A program made the position numbers and the translations under genes. Below the pieces are notes generated by a model. That model was not told where the DNA came from. It was given only the letters and a program-made list of their open reading frames with translations, and searched no databases. A DNA stretch of 64,000 nucleotides, taken from the NCBI GenBank assembly GCA_051002015.1, contig JBPCMS010000078.1, positions 1,564 through 65,563 of the forward strand. Direction: 5' to 3'. This DNA comes from Acidimicrobiia bacterium (GTDB lineage Bacteria > Actinomycetota > Acidimicrobiia > Spongiisociales > UBA5794). Of this stretch, positions 6,101 through 22,654 are shown in pieces (within the stretch, counting starts at the first letter, position 1; every line of letters begins with the position of its first letter).

Positions 6101-6318
6101 GAGCGATCGAACTCCGCAACCAGACATACCGGGAGCTGACCGCCAAGCTGGACGAGGCCAAGGAGGAGCTCTTCAACCTCCGCTTCCAGATGGCAACCAA
6201 CCAGCTCGACAACACGGCGCGCCTCCGCCAGGTGCGCCGCCAGGTGGCCAAGATCAACACCGTCATGCGCGAGATGGAACTCGAGGCATGGCGCAATCAG
6301 CAGGAGGGCACGGCGTGA
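6097..6318 (+). CDS. rpmC: 50S ribosomal protein L29
   Basis: [37 protein letters not shown] overlap with rplP. Confidence 0.93.
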
Positions 6319-6575
6319 CGGACGAACGTGGACGCCGCAAGGTGCGTACCGGGGTGGTGGTATCCGACTCCCGGGACAAGACGGTGACCGTCGAGGTGCC
6401 TTCCTCGAAGCGTCACCCCAAGTACGGCAAGACGATGCCGACCCGCAAGCGCTACCACGCCCACGACGAGACCAACGATGCCCGTCTGGGTGACACGGTC
6501 CGCATCGTCGAGACCCGGCCGCTCTCCAAGAGCAAGCGGTGGCGGGTGGCGGAGATCGTGGAGCGTGCCCGATGA
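6315..6575 (+). CDS. rpsQ: 30S ribosomal protein S17
   Basis: [22 protein letters not shown]...HPKYGKT...YHAHDE...[24 protein letters not shown] overlap with the rpmC stop. The ATG at 6288 would overlap rpmC by 31 nt. Confidence 0.9.
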
Positions 6576-6940
6576 TCCAGACCGAGACCAGGCTCCGCGT
6601 CGCCGACAACAGCGGTGCCCGCGAGGTTCTCTGCATCCGGGTGCTGGGAGGCTCCCGTCGCCGCTATGCCCACGTCGGTGACGTCATCGTCGGTGCGGTC
6701 AAGGAAGCGACCCCGGGCGGCACCGTCAAGAAGGGCGAAGTGGTCAAGGCGGTCGTGGTGCGGACCCGCAAGGAGAGCCGACGTCAGGACGGCAGCTACA
6801 TCCGGTTCGACGACAACGCCTGCGTCATCATCAACGACCAGCAGCAGCCCCGCGGGACCCGCATCTTCGGCCCGGTGGGCCGCGAGCTGCGCGACAAGAA
6901 GTTCATGCGGATCGTCTCGCTCGCCCCGGAGGTGTTGTGA
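6572..6940 (+). CDS. rplN: 50S ribosomal protein L14
   Basis: [27 protein letters not shown]...[11 protein letters not shown]. Confidence 0.98.
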
Positions 6941-7245
6941 TGAAGCTCAAGGTTGGGGACACCGTGCGGGTGATCGCCGGCAAGGACAAGGGCACCGAGA
7001 GCCGGATCGCCAAGGTCATCAAGCAGCGCGGCAAGATCATCGTCGAGGGTGTGGCAACGGCCAAGCGCCACCAGCGCCCCACCGGGCAGACGATGCAGGG
7101 CGGGATCATCGACAAGGACATGCCGATCGACGCCTCCAACGTGATGATCGTGTGCCCCGACTGTGGTCCCACGAGGATCGGGGCCCGCATCGACGACGAG
7201 GGTGTCAAACACCGGGTGTGCCGCAAGTGCGGAGGTGACCTGTGA
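6940..7245 (+). CDS. rplX: 50S ribosomal protein L24 (Cys4 zinc-ribbon variant)
   Basis: [21 protein letters not shown] motif. The C-terminal CPDCG-x17-CRKCGG resembles the Thermus-type L24. A GTG at 6937 is also possible. Confidence 0.95.
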
Positions 7246-7799
7246 CCCCCCGTTTCAAGCAGCGTTACCACGACGAGATCCGGGACCAGCTCCAGGAGCA
7301 CCTCGCCCTGGCCAACGTCATGGAGGTGCCCAGACTGCTCAAGATCGTGGTCAACATGGGGCTGGGGGACGCCGCCGCCGACTCCAAGCTGGTCGACGCC
7401 GCCGTCACCGACATGCGGGCGATCACCGGCCAGCAACCGAGGATCAACCGGGCCCGCAAGTCCATCGCCAACTTCAAGTTGCGCGAGGGGATGCCGATCG
7501 GTGTCTCGGCCACGCTGCGGGGCGACCGGATGTGGGAGTTCTTCGATCGGCTGGTCACCCTGGCCATCCCCAGGATCCGGGACTTCCGCGGGCTGAGCCC
7601 GACAGGGTTCGACGGGGCGGGCAACTACAGCTTCGGGGTCACCGAGCAGCTGATCTTCCCCGAGATCGAGTATGACCAGGTTGGCAAGGTTCGGGGCATG
7701 GACATCACGTTCGTGACCACGGCGAAGAGCGACGAACAGGGCCGCGCCTTCCTCGAAGCGTTCGGTTTCCCGTTCCGGCGGCAACAGGCAGGTGTGTGA
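7242..7799 (+). CDS. rplE: 50S ribosomal protein L5
   Basis: [18 protein letters not shown]...[27 protein letters not shown]...[11 protein letters not shown]. Confidence 0.97.
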
Positions 7800-8104
7800 T
7801 GGCGAAGAAGTCGATGATCAACAAGAACGAGCGCCGCAAGATGCTGGTGGAGCGCTACGCCGCCCGCCGCGCCGAGCTGGTCGCCGTCATCAAGGATCCC
7901 GAGAAGTCCTACGAGGAGAAGCGCGAGGCGTACCAGGCGCTGGCCAAGATGCCACGTGACGCCAGCGCCACCCGCTACCGCAACCGGTGCGGGGTCACCG
8001 GTCGTCCCCGTGGCTACTTCCGTACGTTCGGGATGTCACGCGTGGCACTGCGCCAGCTCGCCCACAACGGCGAGCTGCCCGGTGTCAGGAAGGCTTCCTG
8101 GTAG
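7799..8104 (+). CDS. rpsN: 30S ribosomal protein S14, long (about 101 aa) non-zinc form
   Basis: [14 protein letters not shown]...[43 protein letters not shown]. There is no CxxC pair. Confidence 0.95.
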
Positions 8105-15245: not shown

Positions 15246-15740
15246 TCAGGAGGTTCGTCCGGCGGCCACCCGCCACTCGTGATCGGTGGAAGCGCCGGCC
15301 TTTGTTGCCTCGAGAACTGCGTCGATCTCTTCCTGGGTGAGCTCACTGACCAGGCAGAACTCGTTGCCGAACGGGTCTTGCATGACGGCCCAGTCGAGCA
15401 CCGGTGGTTGGTCGCCGTGGGAACCGGGTCGCGGGTAGAGAGTGGGTGGCTTCTTGACCGATCCGCCAAGAGCAACGATCTGTTCGATGGCGCGGTCGGT
15501 CCCCTCGTTCGGAGTGAGGTCGATGTGTACTCGGTTGGTCCACCGACCTTTGGGCGCATCGACCACGTGAAGGATGAACTCGTGTTTCCATGGATCCTTC
15601 TGGCCCAGATAGCCGAAGCGACCATGCCAACCACTACGGGTTCCTATTATCTCCAGGCCGGTCAGTTCCGACCAGAACTCATAGCCAACAGTGAGATCAC
15701 CGACATCGATGACCGTGCAGCGGTATGTCCCTATCCCCAT
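15246..15740 (-). CDS. VOC (glyoxalase/bleomycin-resistance/dioxygenase-like) family protein
   Basis: 164 aa with HVVDAP...RVHIDL...DPFGNEFCLV motifs typical of glyoxalase-like domains. It starts 9 nt after the cupin gene. Confidence 0.65.
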   Translation of the reverse strand: MGIGTYRCTVIDVGDLTVGYEFWSELTGLEIIGTRSGWHGRFGYLGQKDPWKHEFILHVVDAPKGRWTNRVHIDLTPNEGTDRAIEQIVALGGSVKKPPTLYPRPGSHGDQPPVLDWAVMQDPFGNEFCLVSELTQEEIDAVLEATKAGASTDHEWRVAAGRTS

Positions 15741-15749
15741 CTACGGAAC

Positions 15750-16115
15750 CTAGCCGCCCATTTGCTGCCTTGCGTGCTCGCCGAACTGACGCATCGGTCC
15801 CACCGGGCCGACCTCGAGGAACACGACGACCTCATCGGTCCAGGCGGTGTGGCCGGCCGGCCAATAGTAGAGCTGGCCCGCTTGCGTGGTCTCTTCGGTG
15901 CCGTCCGCATGACGAAGGTGGATCGATCCTTCGAGGACTAGCCCCCAGTGGGGGCTGGGGCACCGGTCGCCGGGCAATCCTTTGAGCACGGGTGACAGGT
16001 CGGTGCCCGCAGGCACCCGTGCATATCGGACGGCCATCTCGCCCCATTCTGCATAGCGAGTGCTGAGCTCACCCTGCTCCAGCTCGATGGGGACCTCGTC
16101 GATCGTCTGTCTCAT
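15750..16115 (-). CDS. cupin domain protein
   Basis: 121 aa with HWGLVLEGSIHLRHADG...YYWPAGH beta-barrel motifs. AGGAGC RBS upstream of the ATG. Confidence 0.65.
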   Translation of the reverse strand: MRQTIDEVPIELEQGELSTRYAEWGEMAVRYARVPAGTDLSPVLKGLPGDRCPSPHWGLVLEGSIHLRHADGTEETTQAGQLYYWPAGHTAWTDEVVVFLEVGPVGPMRQFGEHARQQMGG

Positions 16116-16214
16116 TGTTGCTCCTAGTCCTCAGGCGGCTTTCCACGGGCTCGACGCAGCGGTCCGGTTTCCGGCGGCGACCCTTCCGAGTCCACCACCC
16201 CTCCTCTGCTATCG

Positions 16215-16253
16215 TTGCGAGTAGAATCTACTCGCCTTGCGAGTAGATGTCAA
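16215..16253 (-). promoter_or_regulatory. sigma-70-type promoter (TTGACA-N17-TAGATT on the minus strand) overlapped by repeated CTACTCGCAA/GCGAGTAG operator half-sites; putative PadR operator
   Basis: Minus strand reads TTGACAtCTACTCGCAAgGCGAGTAGATTCTACTCGCAA. It contains an 8-bp inverted repeat (16217-16235) and an 11-nt direct repeat (16215-16225 and 16237-16247). It lies about 100 nt upstream of the cupin ATG. Confidence 0.6.
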
Positions 16254-16421
16254 CAGGAAGATTATGCTACGGCACCCGCGCTACCGGCGTGCGGTAGTAC
16301 CCGTTCGGTTCGACTTCGGTCCAGACGAGGATCTCGAGGGCGCGCAGCGGTGTGACCGTGTATCCGCGGACCGCCAGGTCGCCACAGACGGCTTCGAGGA
16401 CGGGCGGCGCTTGGCGGCAGC

Positions 16422-17132
16422 TCAACCGGAGGTCTTGCCTCTGCCGCGATCCCGTATGCGCTCGAGCCGTTCCCTGGTCGCCGGCGTGATCGACGAATCG
16501 GTCGTCGACGGCCACTCGCTGACTTCGGCGGCGGCCGTGGTCAGGGATGCCTCGATGTCGACCAGGAGGGTGGTGGTGACATCGATGACGCGGGTGACGA
16601 CGTGGAGCCGTTCCGGGAACTGGGGACGATCGTGAACCACGAGGCGCTCATGGTCCGAGCCACCAACGCCCTCTTCGAGCATCCACAGCGGACCGCCCTC
16701 TTCGAGGTACTCGTCGACAAACCCGAGCAGGGTATCGAGCATCGACCGCGCCATCCGGGCCGTCGCCTCCATGGATCCGACCATGTCCTCGACGCTGCCC
16801 TGATCGCCGTAGAACATCCGGACGAGCCCCTCGATCTCGAGGCGAGGCTCTTCAGGTTCGGTGCTCAGCCACTCCTCCATGGCCCTCCTCCCCTCGGGAG
16901 TGATCGTGTACCGGTTTCTGTGCCGCTTGCCTACCGGCTCACGTTCCACGCTCGCCCAACCCAGATCGATCAGACGTTTCTGTTCCCGGTACAGGTGACC
17001 CTCCGAGGATGGCCACACGAACCGCAAACTGCGACGAAGCTGGTTGGTGAGCTCGTAACCGGTCCATGATCTGGCAGCAAGAAGCCCTAACAGCGCATAA
17101 GTAGTGGGAGAAGGCTGTTTCACCAGACCCAT
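16422..17132 (-). CDS. PadR family transcriptional regulator
   Basis: MGLVKQPSPTTYALLGLLAARSWTGYELTNQLRRSLRFVWPSSEGHLYREQKRLIDLGWA...GKRHRNRYTITPEGR is a winged-helix PadR signature. The ORF-track extension to 17807 overlaps the anti-sigma gene and is rejected. Confidence 0.85.
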   Translation of the reverse strand: MGLVKQPSPTTYALLGLLAARSWTGYELTNQLRRSLRFVWPSSEGHLYREQKRLIDLGWASVEREPVGKRHRNRYTITPEGRRAMEEWLSTEPEEPRLEIEGLVRMFYGDQGSVEDMVGSMEATARMARSMLDTLLGFVDEYLEEGGPLWMLEEGVGGSDHERLVVHDRPQFPERLHVVTRVIDVTTTLLVDIEASLTTAAAEVSEWPSTTDSSITPATRERLERIRDRGRGKTSG

Positions 17133-17134
17133 AT

Positions 17135-17151
17135 TACTCGCAATGCGAGCA
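17135..17151. promoter_or_regulatory. near-palindrome TACTCGCA-A-TGCGAGCA directly upstream of the PadR start; shares the half-site with 16215-16253
   Basis: Read directly. Only 2 nt separate it from the ATG (17132), which suggests autoregulation and a short or absent leader. Confidence 0.5.
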
Positions 17152-17203
17152 TTTGTGACCTGGAGGCGCCTCGGGTTCGCCGTTCCGGTGCGCCGCGGTC
17201 GGC

Positions 17204-17938
17204 TCAGCGGTCGACGGGGACCAGGCGCTCGGCGACGGCAAGCGCCTCGGCCAGCGTGGTGTCCGCCTCGATCCTGACCAGCACCCCGTGTCTGGTCGTC
17301 ACCAGGGTGCTTCCCGCCAGCCGGGCCCGGTCTCGTAAGGGGTTTCCCTCGGTGTCGAGCACGACCAGGGTGTGGGGGGCGCCCTCGATCCACAGCCCCG
17401 GAGCACCGCCGACCGTCACCTGCTGGATCTCCGTCCCGGAGCCGATCTCCTTGCCGATCAGGCCCTCGGTGGCGGTCCCGTCGAGCTGGGTGATCAGCAG
17501 CCGCCACCCATCGGTGGGCGACCCGTAGGCAAGGGTGACCATCCCACCGGGGACGGTGAAGTCGACGAACACCGCGTCCGGCTCGACCTGGTTGAGCCCG
17601 ACCAGGTTGAACGAGGCCGCCTCGGCGGCGTCGTCGAGCGTGGTGAGCTGGCCGAGGCTGCGTACGGTCGATGCCGGGGTGAGATCGGCGACCTGGGTTA
17701 TCTCCAGTGGGCCGATCCCGATGAGGTCGGCAACGGCCCTTCTGGTGGTGGGGATGACCGCGGTGAGGATGACGGCGATGGCGGCCGCCGCCGCCACCAT
17801 CCGCCACGGGGAGCGGCGGGGCACCGGCGGCGCCGCGATCCGATCGGTCACCGCCTCGACCAGCGGCGGGGTGGTCGGGAACACGATCTCGGACCGCAGC
17901 GAGTCGAGCATCGACCCGAGGGCATCGTGGGCGGTCAT
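17204..17938 (-). CDS. membrane-anchored anti-sigma-factor-like protein
   Basis: The N-terminal cytoplasmic segment is followed by one TM (WRMVAAAAAIAVILTAVIP) and an extracytoplasmic domain. ATGA overlap with the ECF sigma stop. Confidence 0.6.
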   Translation of the reverse strand: MTAHDALGSMLDSLRSEIVFPTTPPLVEAVTDRIAAPPVPRRSPWRMVAAAAAIAVILTAVIPTTRRAVADLIGIGPLEITQVADLTPASTVRSLGQLTTLDDAAEAASFNLVGLNQVEPDAVFVDFTVPGGMVTLAYGSPTDGWRLLITQLDGTATEGLIGKEIGSGTEIQQVTVGGAPGLWIEGAPHTLVVLDTEGNPLRDRARLAGSTLVTTRHGVLVRIEADTTLAEALAVAERLVPVDR

Positions 17939-18516
17939 GGCATCCTTCCCCCCAGATCGGTGCGGAGGTGCTCCATCGCCCTCCACAGCCGCGACTTCAC
18001 CGTTCCCTTGGGGATCCCGGCGGCCGCCGCCGTCTCCGCCTCGCTGAGCTGGAGGTAGTAGCGGAGCCCGACCACGAGCCGCTCACCATCGGGGAGGCGG
18101 TTGACGGCATCGAGCAGGGCTCGTCTGGTTTCCGCCGCCTCGGCCTCCTGCTCCGGGGTCAGGTCGGGGACGTCGGGGGCCAGTCGGATCGACCGCGCCT
18201 CGTATGCCAGCCTGCGACCAGACGACCGGCGTCGATTGCGGGCCTCGTTGGCGACGATGGTGAGCAGCCACGGCCGGAACGGGCGGCGCGGGTCGAACCG
18301 GTGGAGCGACACGTATGCCTTCACAAAGCCCTCCTGGGCGGCGTCCTCGGCGTCCGTTGCCGACCCGGTGACCAGGTAGGCCACCCGGAAGGCGAGCTGC
18401 TGGTGGATGGCCACCAGCCGGGCGTAGGCCGCCTGGTCGCCGTCCCGCGCCCTGGTCGCCAGCTCGACCTGGTCGGGTGGCGGGGCGTCATCGGCCGGGT
18501 CGAGCTCAGGGGGCAC
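17935..18516 (-). CDS. ECF-type RNA polymerase sigma-70 family factor
   Basis: AYARLVAIHQQLAFRVAYLVTGSATDAEDAAQEGFVKAY (region 2) and LSEAETAAAAGIPKGTVKSRLWRAMEHLR (region 4 HTH). GTG start. Confidence 0.88.
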   Translation of the reverse strand: MPPELDPADDAPPPDQVELATRARDGDQAAYARLVAIHQQLAFRVAYLVTGSATDAEDAAQEGFVKAYVSLHRFDPRRPFRPWLLTIVANEARNRRRSSGRRLAYEARSIRLAPDVPDLTPEQEAEAAETRRALLDAVNRLPDGERLVVGLRYYLQLSEAETAAAAGIPKGTVKSRLWRAMEHLRTDLGGRMP

Positions 18517-18653
18517 CGGAACGCCGTCGGCCGGTTGCCGCCGCCGATGCGACCCAGACTACGAGCGCCCCACCCTTCACGACGGATCCTCCTTGTGATC
18601 GTCCGTCGCCGTTGGTACTCCGCCGCGGTCGATCCGGTTCGCGGCGGCGGCGG

Positions 18654-19376
18654 TCAGGACAACTCGTCGAGGTATCTGGGGAGCATCGCCCGCCACGTCG
18701 GCCAGTCGTGGGGCCAGGTCTCGTCCCACTGGTCGACCCGGTTGGGGATGTCCTTGGCGCCGAGGGCGTTGGCCATCTGCCAGGTTCGCTCCGGAAACTC
18801 CCAGGCTCCGCTCCCCGTGGCGAACAGGACAAACCGGGTGCGGAGCAGGTCGAGCTGCCATCCATTGAGGTCTGGGAGGAAATGCAGCGGCGACGAGTAG
18901 TAGAAGTCGTCGCTCCAATGCCCGTGGAGCCGGTCGGACAGGTCGTAGGTGCCGCTCATGCACAGCGCCGCCCGGAACAGATCGGGGTGTCTGGTCAGCA
19001 GCTCGACGGCCCAGAAGGCGCCAACGGACGCTCCGGCCGAGATCACGGTGATGCCTTCGTCGTTGCAGTCGGAGCGGATGGCAGGGACCACCTCCTCGGC
19101 GATGAAGCGGTCGAACTGGTTCTGCAGCCACATCGAGTGGCGGGGGTCGTCGCCCATCATCCACGACCGGCCCGAGATCGAGTCGACCGAGTACACCTTG
19201 ATCCGCCTGGCGGCGAGCAGGTCGGCCACCGAGCTGATGGCGTGGAACCGCTCCGCTTCCTCGGCGTCCCCCCCAGCGGTGGGAAAGAGCAGCACCGGGG
19301 TGCCGACGGTGCCCCACCGGGCCAGGGTGGCGTTCTGCTGGACCCGATCCGAATACCAGTACTCCACCGCCTTCAT
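18654..19376 (-). CDS. alpha/beta-hydrolase 'putative esterase' family protein
   Basis: 240 aa with a GASVGA nucleophile-elbow (GxSxG) motif and PVLLFPTAGGDAEE. ATGA overlap with the ATP-grasp gene stop. Confidence 0.7.
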   Translation of the reverse strand: MKAVEYWYSDRVQQNATLARWGTVGTPVLLFPTAGGDAEEAERFHAISSVADLLAARRIKVYSVDSISGRSWMMGDDPRHSMWLQNQFDRFIAEEVVPAIRSDCNDEGITVISAGASVGAFWAVELLTRHPDLFRAALCMSGTYDLSDRLHGHWSDDFYYSSPLHFLPDLNGWQLDLLRTRFVLFATGSGAWEFPERTWQMANALGAKDIPNRVDQWDETWPHDWPTWRAMLPRYLDELS

Positions 19377-20668
19377 GCCGTCCCCCCTTCGCCTTCCGCC
19401 GTCGACGACGCACCGGCGAGACGATCGGTCTCGGTGTGGCGCCAGAACTGGACGAGCCCGTAGAAGTGGTCGGTGAACTGGTCGACCTCGTGGGCGGGGA
19501 ACAGCGTCGCCACCTTGCGCCTGATGATCTCCCTGACCCGCTCGGTCCCGAAGTAGTCGAGGGCGACTTGGTCGAGATCGTCCAGGTTCTCGGCGCAGAA
19601 GCTCTCGAAGCGGTCGGCGTCGAGGCGTTCCCTGGAGAGGCGGCCCATCGCCGCCAGCCGCTCCTCCGGATCCTCGATGGCTTCGGCGATGTCGAAGTAG
19701 TCCCTCCAACCCAGGTCGTGGCGCATCTTGCGCTTGGTGGCGGCGCAGAACAGCGACCAGCGCAGCAGCGCCTTCACCAGCCAGGGCAGGTGGTAGTGCA
19801 GCGAGGTCACCTGCGAGTCGGGGTTGGCGTTGGCGAAGTCGATCGGATAGAACACCCCGTCCTTTCGCAGCGCCTCGCACGAGTTGAAGTCCCACCCGAA
19901 GAAGGTGTTGATGGTCAGGGTCAGGTTGGTCAGGTGGTCCCACTCGGCGCCGTCGACGAAGTTGAAGCCCACCTTGTAGCGGTCGTGGAGCGGGGCGTCA
20001 GGGTCGTAGCGGATGATGTTGATCTGGGGTCCGACGCCGAGGCAGCGCACGAACAGGTCGAAGGGGTGGACCGCCTTCTGGATGTGCATGATGCGCGAAC
20101 CGGACGACTCGTAGGCGGCGACCAGGGCGTCCCCGTCGTCGATCTTGCTCACCCCGACCCAGGCGCCGCCGTCGTACGGCTTCATGAACAGCGGGTAGCC
20201 CATCCGGTCCCCGAGCGCCTTCAGGTCGAACATCTGGGCGTAGCGGTGGAGGGTGACGTCGAGATCGGCCTCGAGCGGGTCGGTGCGGCGGTACTCCTTC
20301 GGGGGCAGCAGCCAGGTCTCGGGGACGTTCGCCCCCAGCCGCATCAGGGCGGCGTACGAGGTGTGCTTCTGCATCGCCTGCAGCGTGAATGGATTGTTGA
20401 GGACGTACAGGTCGTCCTTCACCACCGCCTTCTTGATCCATTCCCGGCTGGTGTGGTACCAGGGGGTGAGCCGGTCGAGCACCACGTCGTAGCTGACGGG
20501 CTGATCGAGGTCGAAGGGCTCGATGGTGATGCGATCGGTCTCGAAGTCGACGGTGTCGCCGTCGACGGTCACGACCGGGGCGAGCTGGGCGAGGATGTCC
20601 TCGTAGAACTGGGGCCAGCAGAGATCGGCGCCCAGGGAGAGGCCGATGCGTCGGGTGTGGTGGCTCAT
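19373..20668 (-). CDS. ATP-grasp-fold protein of unknown specificity (tentative)
   Basis: 431 aa. The central GYPLFMKPYDGGAWVGVSKIDDGDAL...IMHIQKAV resembles the ATP-grasp nucleotide-binding core. The call rests on motif resemblance only. Confidence 0.55.
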   Translation of the reverse strand: MSHHTRRIGLSLGADLCWPQFYEDILAQLAPVVTVDGDTVDFETDRITIEPFDLDQPVSYDVVLDRLTPWYHTSREWIKKAVVKDDLYVLNNPFTLQAMQKHTSYAALMRLGANVPETWLLPPKEYRRTDPLEADLDVTLHRYAQMFDLKALGDRMGYPLFMKPYDGGAWVGVSKIDDGDALVAAYESSGSRIMHIQKAVHPFDLFVRCLGVGPQINIIRYDPDAPLHDRYKVGFNFVDGAEWDHLTNLTLTINTFFGWDFNSCEALRKDGVFYPIDFANANPDSQVTSLHYHLPWLVKALLRWSLFCAATKRKMRHDLGWRDYFDIAEAIEDPEERLAAMGRLSRERLDADRFESFCAENLDDLDQVALDYFGTERVREIIRRKVATLFPAHEVDQFTDHFYGLVQFWRHTETDRLAGASSTAEGEGGTA

Positions 20669-20726
20669 AGCCCCAAGTTACTGCGCGGCCGCACCGGCCG
20701 GCAGCCGGCAAACGACCGACCATTGC

Positions 20727-21926
20727 TCATGGCAGCCCGGCGGGCAGCAGGTCCAGGAGCGCACCGCCCAGCAGGTTGCGCCAGCTCTGCCAATGGTGGC
20801 CGTCCGCCACCTCCTCGTATTGCACCGCCATCCCGGTGGCCTCGAGCACGATGCGGAAGGCCCGATTGTCGGCCACCAGCCCCTCGAAGGTCCCAACCGC
20901 CATCCACACCTGGTCGGATGGCTGTCCCGGGTTCTCGGTGAATGCCTTCATGAAGGCGATGACCGGCTCGAACAGCGGCCCACGGCGCATCGGTCCCCCG
21001 GTGGCGGTGACGAACGAGCCCGACAGCAGGATGGTCGAGGCGAAGGTTCCCGGGTGGTACCACGCCGTGGCCAGGCTGGCCACCGCCCCCAGGCTGCTGC
21101 CGCCGATGACCCGGAGTGCCGGGTCGTCGGTGGTGTGGAACCCGGTGGCGAGCCGGGGGAGCACGTCTTCCACCACGAAGTCGGCGTGGGTCTCCGAGGC
21201 GGTGTACTCCTCGCTGCGGTGGACCGGGTCGAGCAGGGCGACCACGGCGGGCCGCACCGCCCCGGCCCCGAACAGGTTGTCGAGCACCGTGGCCAGCGAG
21301 GCGTACTCCACCATGTCGCTGCCGTCGTGGAGCACCACCAGCGGGTAGGGGCCGTCATCGGGGAAGCAGGGTGGCAGGTACACCGACACCAGACGGCGGT
21401 CGCCGAAGGCGCTCTTCTCGATCTCGAATGCCTCGAGCGTCCCGGGGGCGCCGCCGTTCGGGTTCACCCAGCTCGGCTCGACGTAGCCGGGGGCGTGAGC
21501 GACCGAGTTCGACCCGAACGGGTCCGATGCGGTGCGGCGGTTGAGGGGGTCGAGGATGCGGTCGGTGCGGTCGATGCCCACCACCTCGAGCTTGTACTCG
21601 ACCCGGCTCCCGGGGGGCAGCGCGACCGTGACGTGCCACAGATCGCTGTCTTCGACTCGCTCCATCGGGGGGAACTCGGGGAACCGCGCCATGAAATGGA
21701 CGACATCCACCGACTCGGCGTCCCCGACGTAGGCAAAGGTGGTGGCGCCGTCGACGGTGTAGGGGGCTCCGGCCCTGGCGATGCGGCGCCGCAGGTAGGC
21801 GGGCGCCATGTTGCGGGCGGCGATGGCGAGCATGTCGGGAAGGGGAAGCGGGGTGAGGGCTGCCATTGCCGGCGGGAGGCTAGCGGCGCCGTTTCCCCTC
21901 GCCATCGATCCAATGCGGGCTACCAT
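20727..21926 (-). CDS. enterochelin-esterase-like (Fes/esterase family) alpha/beta hydrolase with an N-terminal beta-sandwich domain
   Basis: [15 protein letters not shown]...[17 protein letters not shown] (N-domain), [15 protein letters not shown] (GxSxG). The start is uncertain: ATGs at 21926, 21905 and 21866 are all in frame. Confidence 0.7.
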
Positions 21927-22159
21927 CAGGGCGTCTCGACCCGTCGAGCCGACGTTCCGAGGGAGCGCTGGTTCAATTCGTGCGCGATTTGCCCGGATAT
22001 CCGAGCGGGGCCTATCATCATGGCCTGGTTCCCTTCGGGTGCCAGGCTTTTCCATGGGAGCGACCGCTGGCGCCCAACGTCGCCTCCGAGGCCGCGATGA
22101 GGGGTCGGACCGCTTCCGGACCGCAGTTCCGGAGGTCGAAACGCGACAGGTTCAGGGGT

Positions 22160-22273
22160 ATGAAGGTCTCAGCGTCCGCCAAGAAGATGTGTGAGAAGTG
22201 CCGGATCATCCGGAGACACGGTCGTGTCTGGGTGATCTGCTCCAACCCACGTCACAAGCAGCGTCAGGGGTAA
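22160..22273 (+). CDS. rpmJ: 50S ribosomal protein L36 (zinc form)
   Basis: [37 protein letters not shown]. Confidence 0.97.
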
Positions 22274-22276
22274 TCG

Positions 22277-22654
22277 ATGGCTCGTATCGCCGGAACCGAT
22301 CTTCCCAGGGACAAGCGGGTCGAGATCGGGCTCACCTACATCTTCGGGGTGGGCAGGACCACATCGCAGCGGATGCTCACCGATCTCGACATCGACGTCG
22401 ACACCAAGGTGCGCGATCTCACCGACGCCGAGGTGGTCAAGATCCGCCAGTACGTCGACTCGAACCTCACCGTCGAGGGCGACCTGCGACGGGACGTCGC
22501 CCAGAACATCAAGCGCAAGATCGAGATCGGCAGCTACCAGGGGCTGCGCCACCGGCGCGGCCTCCCGGTGCGCGGGCAGCGCACCCACACCAACGCCCGT
22601 ACCCGCAAGGGTAAGGCGGCCCCGGTTGCGGGGAAGAAGAAGGTCGGCAAGTAG
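22277..22654 (+). CDS. rpsM: 30S ribosomal protein S13
   Basis: [31 protein letters not shown]...[24 protein letters not shown]. Confidence 0.98.

Follow-up and report, generated by a model that had tools for sequence, protein, structure and literature searches.

A three-gene cassette encoding two esterases and an ATP-grasp protein

The window analyzed here is a 64,000-nucleotide stretch of DNA from an Acidimicrobiia bacterium, high in guanine-plus-cytosine content (about 68–70%) and located on contig C78; the genome to which it belongs (G000) has a size of 2.35 Mb and is 94% complete. At positions 18654–21926 it carries a cassette of three intact open reading frames (ORFs), all on the minus strand, that we call E1, AG-X, and E2. 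E1 (20727–21926) encodes a predicted cytoplasmic, two-domain serine esterase of 399 residues with a PF00756 domain, AG-X (19373–20668) a 431-residue predicted ATP-grasp ligase of an orphan family, and E2 (18654–19376) a small, single-domain serine hydrolase of the PF00756 type, 240 residues long, in which residues 115–120 read GASVGA. E1 and AG-X are separated by 58 nt, and the stop codon of AG-X overlaps the start codon of E2 in an ATGA (19373–19376, GGCATGAAGG), leaving the two genes translationally coupled. An initial annotation, made from the sequence alone, had described three co-directional genes with this overlap, naming them a Fes/enterochelin-esterase-like hydrolase with an N-terminal beta-sandwich, a protein with an ATP-grasp-like core, and a 'putative esterase' with a GASVGA motif; all of these descriptions held up in the analyses reported below.

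The start codon of E1 is uncertain, with candidates at 21926, 21905, and 21866. The length of 399 residues is counted from the ATG at 21926, and the frame is open up to 22055. Because homologs begin near 21866, and because residues 1–14 of the AlphaFold2 (AF2) model are disordered, translation may in fact begin at the 21866 ATG.

AG-X has an ATP-grasp fold and retains the catalytic residues

The AF2 model of AG-X, built on 39 homologs, has a predicted local distance difference test score (pLDDT) of 87 and a predicted template-modeling score (pTM) of 0.88, and it shows a three-domain ATP-grasp fold. A Foldseek search of this model returned 397 PDB matches at E ≤ 0.001, the 50 best of which were all RimK, Ddl, or ArgX/LysX structures, with RimK first (E ~ 3e-9, target-normalized template-modeling (TM) score about 0.7). 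An alignment by hhalign to canonical ATP-grasp paralogs from related loci (probability 93.7%) placed K163, E265, and D277 of AG-X opposite the invariant K155, E271, and E287 of those paralogs, which are the ATP-binding lysine and two metal-binding acids. The segment at residues 159–182 reads PLFMKPYDGGAWVGVSKIDDGDAL. K163, E265, and D277 are invariant across the 39 AG-X sequences, whose alignment spans four phyla and contains 107 invariant columns, with many aromatic residues among them.

Although AG-X shares its fold, the ATP-binding lysine, and the two metal-binding acids with the RimK, LysX/ArgX, and Ddl group, it is only 13–17% identical to these proteins. The hinge 'EE' of the canonical paralogs is replaced in AG-X by Q197-K198, of which Q197 is invariant and K198 is the residue of this window at a variable position. 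The model also contains an additional helical domain of roughly 130 residues at the C-terminus (about residues 294–426), for which a PDB sequence search gave no relative. Finally, the genes that accompany AG-X encode esterases, rather than the amidases or carrier proteins associated with that group.

No Pfam or NCBIfam model matched AG-X above its cut-off, and the sub-threshold matches were all to D-Ala-D-Ala-ligase and RimK models, namely PF07478 (15.7 bits, cut-off 24), TIGR01205 (17.8 bits, cut-off 245), and TIGR00768 rimK_fam (18.2 bits, cut-off 143). In a PDB sequence search only residues ~150–230 could be aligned to Ddl, over an 'FxKP...G..VG' segment; VanA was also among the weak sequence matches. 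With PF07478 and TIGR01205 below cut-off and so little of the protein alignable, we rejected the reading of AG-X as a Ddl paralog. Full-length relatives at 30–40% identity likewise belong to no Pfam family. A word-indexed search found 7,596 clusters (90% identity) at E ≤ 0.001 among 8,000 candidates scored, the 120 best matches being 63–87% identical to AG-X, and an exhaustive search found 1,176 matches among 50%-identity representatives. The family is unusually conserved, at about 60–65% identity between phyla. Neither Pfam nor NCBIfam models this large and highly conserved family, and its members go by generic public names, either 'hypothetical protein' or 'ATP-grasp domain-containing protein'. 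In our best explanation, AG-X belongs to a previously undescribed ATP-grasp family and is predicted, from its fold and residues, to be catalytically competent.

AG-X proteins of Nannocystis carry a C-terminal tail of 80–100 residues that is rich in alanine, proline, and valine and ends in a lysine-rich stretch (locus L096, 9243–9548; locus L097, 9255–9515). In N. exedens the tail is built of near-exact AVAAPEVVTTPE repeats, with three full copies and a variant fourth. The remaining myxococcal AG-X proteins have shorter, lysine-rich tails.

E1 and E2 are predicted cytoplasmic serine esterases

Both flanking genes encode members of the PF00756 family, for which the cut-off is 22 bits: E1 scores 76 bits (E = 5e-21) and E2 scores 38.6 bits (E = 1.3e-9). 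In the AF2 model of E1 (pLDDT 93), an N-terminal beta-sandwich at about residues 55–145 is followed by the PF00756 alpha/beta-hydrolase domain. Across 44 sequences E1 has an invariant G276-x-S278-x-G280 motif together with H377, D201, R237, and Y241. In E2, the residues kept in at least 95% of 62 homologs are G115-A-S117-x-G119, H223, E193, D215, and a P32-T-A-G-G-D37 motif; its weak PDB matches were to metagenomic esterases, homoserine O-acetyltransferase, and the mycolyltransferase PS1. The translated N-termini of E1 and E2, read by eye without a predictor, contain no evident signal peptide. From this, and from the conserved GxSxG serine and histidine of each (S278 and H377 in E1, S117 and H223 in E2), both proteins appear to be serine (thio)esterases that are active in the cytoplasm.

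The structural relatives of E1 fall into two groups. Its best Foldseek E-values, 1e-22 to 4e-23, were to feruloyl and acetyl-xylan esterases that join a CBM48 domain to a CE1 domain (6rzn, 8bf3, 7b5v, 6ne9; TM-scores 0.55–0.59). Its best TM-scores, 0.66–0.70, were to the enterobactin esterase Fes and related trilactone esterases of the IroD/IroE/BesA type (3c87, 3mga, 2b20). The fold of the beta-sandwich fits the CBM48 domain of CE1 esterases and the N-terminal domain of Fes alike, and in sequence E1 is below cut-off for both Enterochelin_N (22.3 bits, cut-off 27.1) and CBM_48 (PF02922; 17.6 bits, cut-off 22.4). The CE1 enzymes share with E1 the arrangement of beta-sandwich plus catalytic domain, but they are secreted and degrade xylan, whereas E1 has no evident signal peptide, matches them with lower TM-scores, and occurs in a context linked to glycogen.

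E1 resembles Fes in having the same two domains, a Ser-His catalytic core, and a predicted cytoplasmic location, and public records label it 'enterochelin esterase'. These likenesses would fit a siderophore-type system in which E1 is a trilactone esterase and AG-X makes a bond, amide or ester, within an iron chelator. However, E1 is only about 20% identical to Fes and scores 92 bits against the enterochelin esterase model NF007758, far below the cut-off of 222. Nor is there a conserved neighborhood of siderophore synthesis or uptake: non-ribosomal peptide synthetase, NRPS-independent siderophore (NIS) synthetase, TonB, and ATP-binding cassette (ABC) iron-uptake genes were not conserved near the cassette, and the conserved context consists instead of glucan genes. 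We consider this explanation highly improbable and rejected it, with the Fes model and Enterochelin_N both below cut-off and no conserved siderophore genes.

The three genes occur together across phyla and in two gene orders

We found AG-X in 16 of 41 searched relatives from the same order, and in all 11 of the AG-X-bearing relatives whose flanks were fetched the gene order was E1-AG-X-E2. We then compared 80 named loci from four phyla, comprising Acidimicrobiia, Thermoanaerobaculia and other Acidobacteriota, Myxococcota (including Nannocystis exedens DSM 71), and Steroidobacteraceae. At least one esterase gene adjoins AG-X in 77 of these 80 loci, and both do so in most. Of 301 genomes sampled across the Actinomycetota, 35 carry AG-X, most of them in the form of a divergent subfamily (41–46% identity) whose gene order is E1-E2-AG-X. 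A maximum-likelihood tree split the two subfamilies with 100/100 support and joined the Acidimicrobiia clade of the window to Acidobacteriota, Myxococcota, and Steroidobacteraceae, not to other Actinomycetota. Because of this grouping, the tree suggests that AG-X moved between phyla in the past.

The trio has been kept despite a change in gene order, which is strong evidence for functional coupling. The 11 of 11 relatives, the 77 of 80 loci, and the second gene order in the divergent subfamily together rule out a chance neighborhood. The initial annotation had left it to neighborhood analysis whether the three genes co-occur elsewhere; they do, from Acidimicrobiia and other Actinomycetota to Acidobacteriota, Myxococcota, and Steroidobacteraceae. 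We conclude that the trio is best explained as a single functional unit.

Two relatives of the same genus or family have a 1.6–1.9-kb insertion with a lipoprotein-like ORF between E1 and AG-X (L028, 6430–7995; L035, about 6260–8000). Since the insertion parts E1 from AG-X in both, the cassette evidently tolerates interruption. In the divergent actinomycetal subfamily (L107–L117), an ABC-transporter ATPase-like gene lies shortly upstream of E1 in seven loci.

Carriers of the cassette have glycogen genes

Genes for GlgA, GlgC, GlgX, MalQ, or glycoside hydrolase family 13 (GH13) enzymes lie within 8 kb of the cassette in 25 of the 80 loci. Among the 76 loci without extra ligase genes, a glucan gene on the same strand directly abuts E1 or E2 in 12, in about three independent arrangements: GlgA immediately after E2 (G026), GlgX right ahead of E1 (L013, from a Thermoanaerobaculia genome), and a GH13 gene 6–144 bp after E2 in a clade of Acidimicrobiia. 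This GH13 gene follows E2 on the same strand in L093, L094, L118, and nine other Acidimicrobiia loci. Its product is 600–630 residues long and comes closest to the N-terminal domain of TreS or to amylosucrase, in each case far below cut-off (190–204 bits versus 678). It may represent an undescribed GH13 subfamily that works with the cassette.

We also compared the distributions of AG-X and glycogen genes among genomes. Within the order, GlgA of the PF08323 type was present in 16 of 16 carriers and in 12 of 25 non-carriers (Fisher p = 3e-4). This nesting fails at the level of the phylum, where only 6 of 35 carriers have PF08323; in one family of 21 genomes, 18 have AG-X and none has PF08323. 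For this reason we used the branching enzyme GlgB, which is pathway-neutral, for the phylum-level test. GlgB, counted over nine taxonomic families, was found in 35 of 35 carriers and in 111 of 266 non-carriers (p about 1e-12, uncorrected for phylogeny). Catalase, used as a control, was not enriched (6 of 35 carriers versus 58 of 301 genomes overall). Outside this sample, the Thermoanaerobaculia carrier G336 is an apparent exception, lacking a GH13-type GlgB (TIGR01515); it does, however, encode GlgA and a GH57 enzyme. These data show a cassette restricted, among the genomes sampled, to those capable of making glycogen, and the tie to alpha-glucan, which the initial annotation had missed, is the one functional lead that the comparative data give.

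A proposed make-and-break cycle coupled to glycogen storage

The initial annotation had proposed that the locus supports synthesis and turnover of an ester- or amide-linked compound, and we infer the same. In the form that we find somewhat more probable than its opposite, the cassette would run a cycle that makes and breaks a cytoplasmic, ester-linked compound whose metabolism is coupled to glycogen storage. AG-X, a presumed carboxylate-activating ligase because of the chemistry of the ATP-grasp superfamily, would use ATP to convert a carboxylate into an acyl-phosphate and would then join it to a second substrate through a hydroxyl (or an amine or thiol). The (thio)ester bond made by AG-X would be hydrolyzed by E1 and E2, and the turnover of the compound would be tied in some way to alpha-glucan storage. 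An esterase-cleavable product has chemical precedent in the superfamily, since VanA, which makes D-Ala-D-lactate, and the graspetide (microviridin-type) ligases are ester-forming ATP-grasp enzymes. The cassette differs from both in that it has no van genes nearby and AG-X has no family-level match to either. No gene for a precursor peptide was seen close by, and the conserved neighbor clusters, of at least 120 residues and examined without a systematic small-ORF search, included no short peptide.

Several observations weigh against such a cycle. The nearest solved relatives of AG-X (RimK, LysX, and Ddl) are mostly amide-forming, whereas its partners here are esterases, and we know of no ATP-grasp enzyme that esterifies sugars. 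E1 or E2 is singly absent beside AG-X in some lineages. In the genome of the window the glycogen genes (glgA, glgB, and one resembling glgC) are grouped on contig C80, away from the cassette; in the divergent actinomycetal subfamily, most of the loci read have no glucan gene adjacent, and PF08323 GlgA is absent. The phyletic counts, moreover, take no account of phylogeny or genome size.

The initial annotation had been aware of no assigned function for this combination of genes, and indeed we matched no characterized pathway in Pfam, NCBIfam, PADLOC, the PDB, or the searchable literature. A full-text literature search, which did not cover a 2009 survey of ATP-grasp proteins, found no published description of the cassette. 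PADLOC gave no match for E1, AG-X, or E2, and we rejected an anti-phage defense system on this basis. The fixed partnership with two esterases and the restriction to glycogen-capable genomes point to chemistry, as yet undescribed, that acts on the main carbon store of bacteria or alongside it. If the proposed cycle is right, it would involve either a novel storage or turnover metabolite or a new type of ATP-grasp reaction. Direct tests of the enzymes are possible, since Nannocystis exedens DSM 71 and N. punicea are carriers available in culture.

Candidate substrates: the glucan itself or a soluble compound

One way to account for the tie to glycogen is that the glucan itself is modified, with AG-X attaching an amino acid or some other carboxylate to hydroxyls of alpha-glucan or malto-oligosaccharides by ester bonds and with E1 and E2 removing these groups. 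Such a scheme would agree with the presence of GlgB in every one of the 35 carriers, with the numerous aromatic residues among the invariant positions of AG-X, with the match of E1 to CBM48-CE1 carbohydrate esterases (E ~ 1e-22), and with the GH13, GlgA (G026), and GlgX (L013) genes that abut E2 or E1 where no other ligase is present; VanA and the graspetide ligases are examples of ATP-grasps that form esters. However, the CBM_48 score of E1 is below cut-off, and its beta-sandwich fits CBM48 no better than it fits Fes. Acylation of a polysaccharide is not a known reaction of any ATP-grasp, and most loci, including that of the window, have no adjoining glucan gene. We therefore consider modification of the glucan unlikely. 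If it did occur, AG-X would be the first ATP-grasp 'glucan ester ligase', acting on glycogen or on malto-oligosaccharide primers, and the main carbon store of bacteria would be subject to a reversible covalent modification erased by two esterases of the CE1/Fes type.

A different kind of substrate is suggested by extended loci in Acidobacteriota, Myxococcota, and some Actinomycetota, where the trio is accompanied by one to three canonical ATP-grasps of about 410 residues. These extra enzymes are L-amino-acid-ligase-like and have weak matches to cyanophycin synthetase. Directly upstream of E1, the extended loci encode an S51-like protein resembling cyanophycinase or PepE (22.4 bits, cut-off 23.9), and a 4HBT thioesterase gene often follows E2. 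The genome of the window has no ortholog of the extra ATP-grasps, the S51-like protein, or the 4HBT thioesterase, so E1, AG-X, and E2 form a self-sufficient core.

The extended loci recall the cyanophycin system, in which the ATP-grasp ligase CphA is paired with a dedicated hydrolase, the S51-family cyanophycinase CphB; the cassette, too, pairs an ATP-grasp with dedicated hydrolases. However, AG-X has no Mur-ligase domain and no match to CphA, and the hydrolases here are esterases. A second possibility is that the module makes and degrades a soluble compound or oligomer derived from amino acids, such as a depsipeptide, a peptide, or a reserve material, which is regulated together with glycogen yet not bound to it. 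The presence of amino-acid-ligase-like ATP-grasps and an S51-like protein beside the trio in three phyla speaks for this idea, as do the nearest structures to AG-X, which ligate amino acids, and the resemblance of E1 to Fes-type enzymes, which cut seryl-ester (trilactone) bonds. Set against these points, the accompanying ligases and the S51-like protein have no ortholog in the genome of the window, the S51 match is itself below cut-off, no polymer or metabolite of this kind is known, and the restriction of carriers to GlgB-positive genomes is left unexplained. We consider this possibility less likely than not, and within or beside the proposed make-and-break cycle we regard a soluble amino-acid-derived compound as a more likely class of substrate than the glucan itself.

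Genomic setting of the cassette

In the window the cassette sits between map and rpmJ, inside a ribosomal gene cluster. With RimK as the top structural match of AG-X, this placement, seen in this genus and its close relatives, raised the possibility that AG-X is a RimK/LysX-like ligase that modifies the tail of a ribosomal or carrier protein, the esterases being unrelated or removing a different group. But the cassette occupies this site in only about 8 of the 80 loci compared, all from close relatives; AG-X scores only 18 bits against TIGR00768, its likeness to RimK being one of structure alone; the partners conserved across phyla and gene orders are esterases; and there is no LysW-like carrier gene nearby. 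We consider a protein-tail ligase quite improbable. The ribosomal placement is specific to this lineage and lends no support to any function of the cassette.

The divergent intergenic region between E1 and rpmJ (21927–22159) is, from its position, the presumed promoter region of the cassette. A scan for sigma-70 consensus sequences found no minus-strand promoter match in this region and one plus-strand match (21989–22018). Terminator-like matches near the cassette occurred only at background frequency in a consensus scan, and an Rfam search of 17000–22400 returned nothing credible.

The translation initiation factor gene infA (TIGR00008) is not present between the cassette and rpmJ (21927–22273), nor was it found elsewhere in G000. 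In all four same-genus genomes examined, infA lies at a site distant from the cassette; in G003, for example, infA is at 3.0 Mb and the cassette at 1.14 Mb. Because of this, in this genus infA seems to have moved away from the ribosomal cluster, and an assembly gap is probably the only reason why it is missing from G000.

Between map and the cassette, and downstream of the cassette on the same strand, is an accessory block (15246–18516, minus strand) whose genes, named from their ORF translations alone, encode a glyoxalase/vicinal-oxygen-chelate (VOC)-fold protein, a cupin, a PadR-like regulator whose N-terminus is extended by a long stretch rich in Arg and Pro, and an extracytoplasmic function (ECF) sigma factor with an anti-sigma-like protein beside it. 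A 24-codon ORF on the minus strand (18506–18592) opens with a GTG preceded, 6 nt ahead, by a strong Shine-Dalgarno sequence, AAGGAGG, and its stop codon overlaps the start of the ECF sigma factor gene (17935–18516); it may encode a coupled leader peptide, or it may have arisen by chance.

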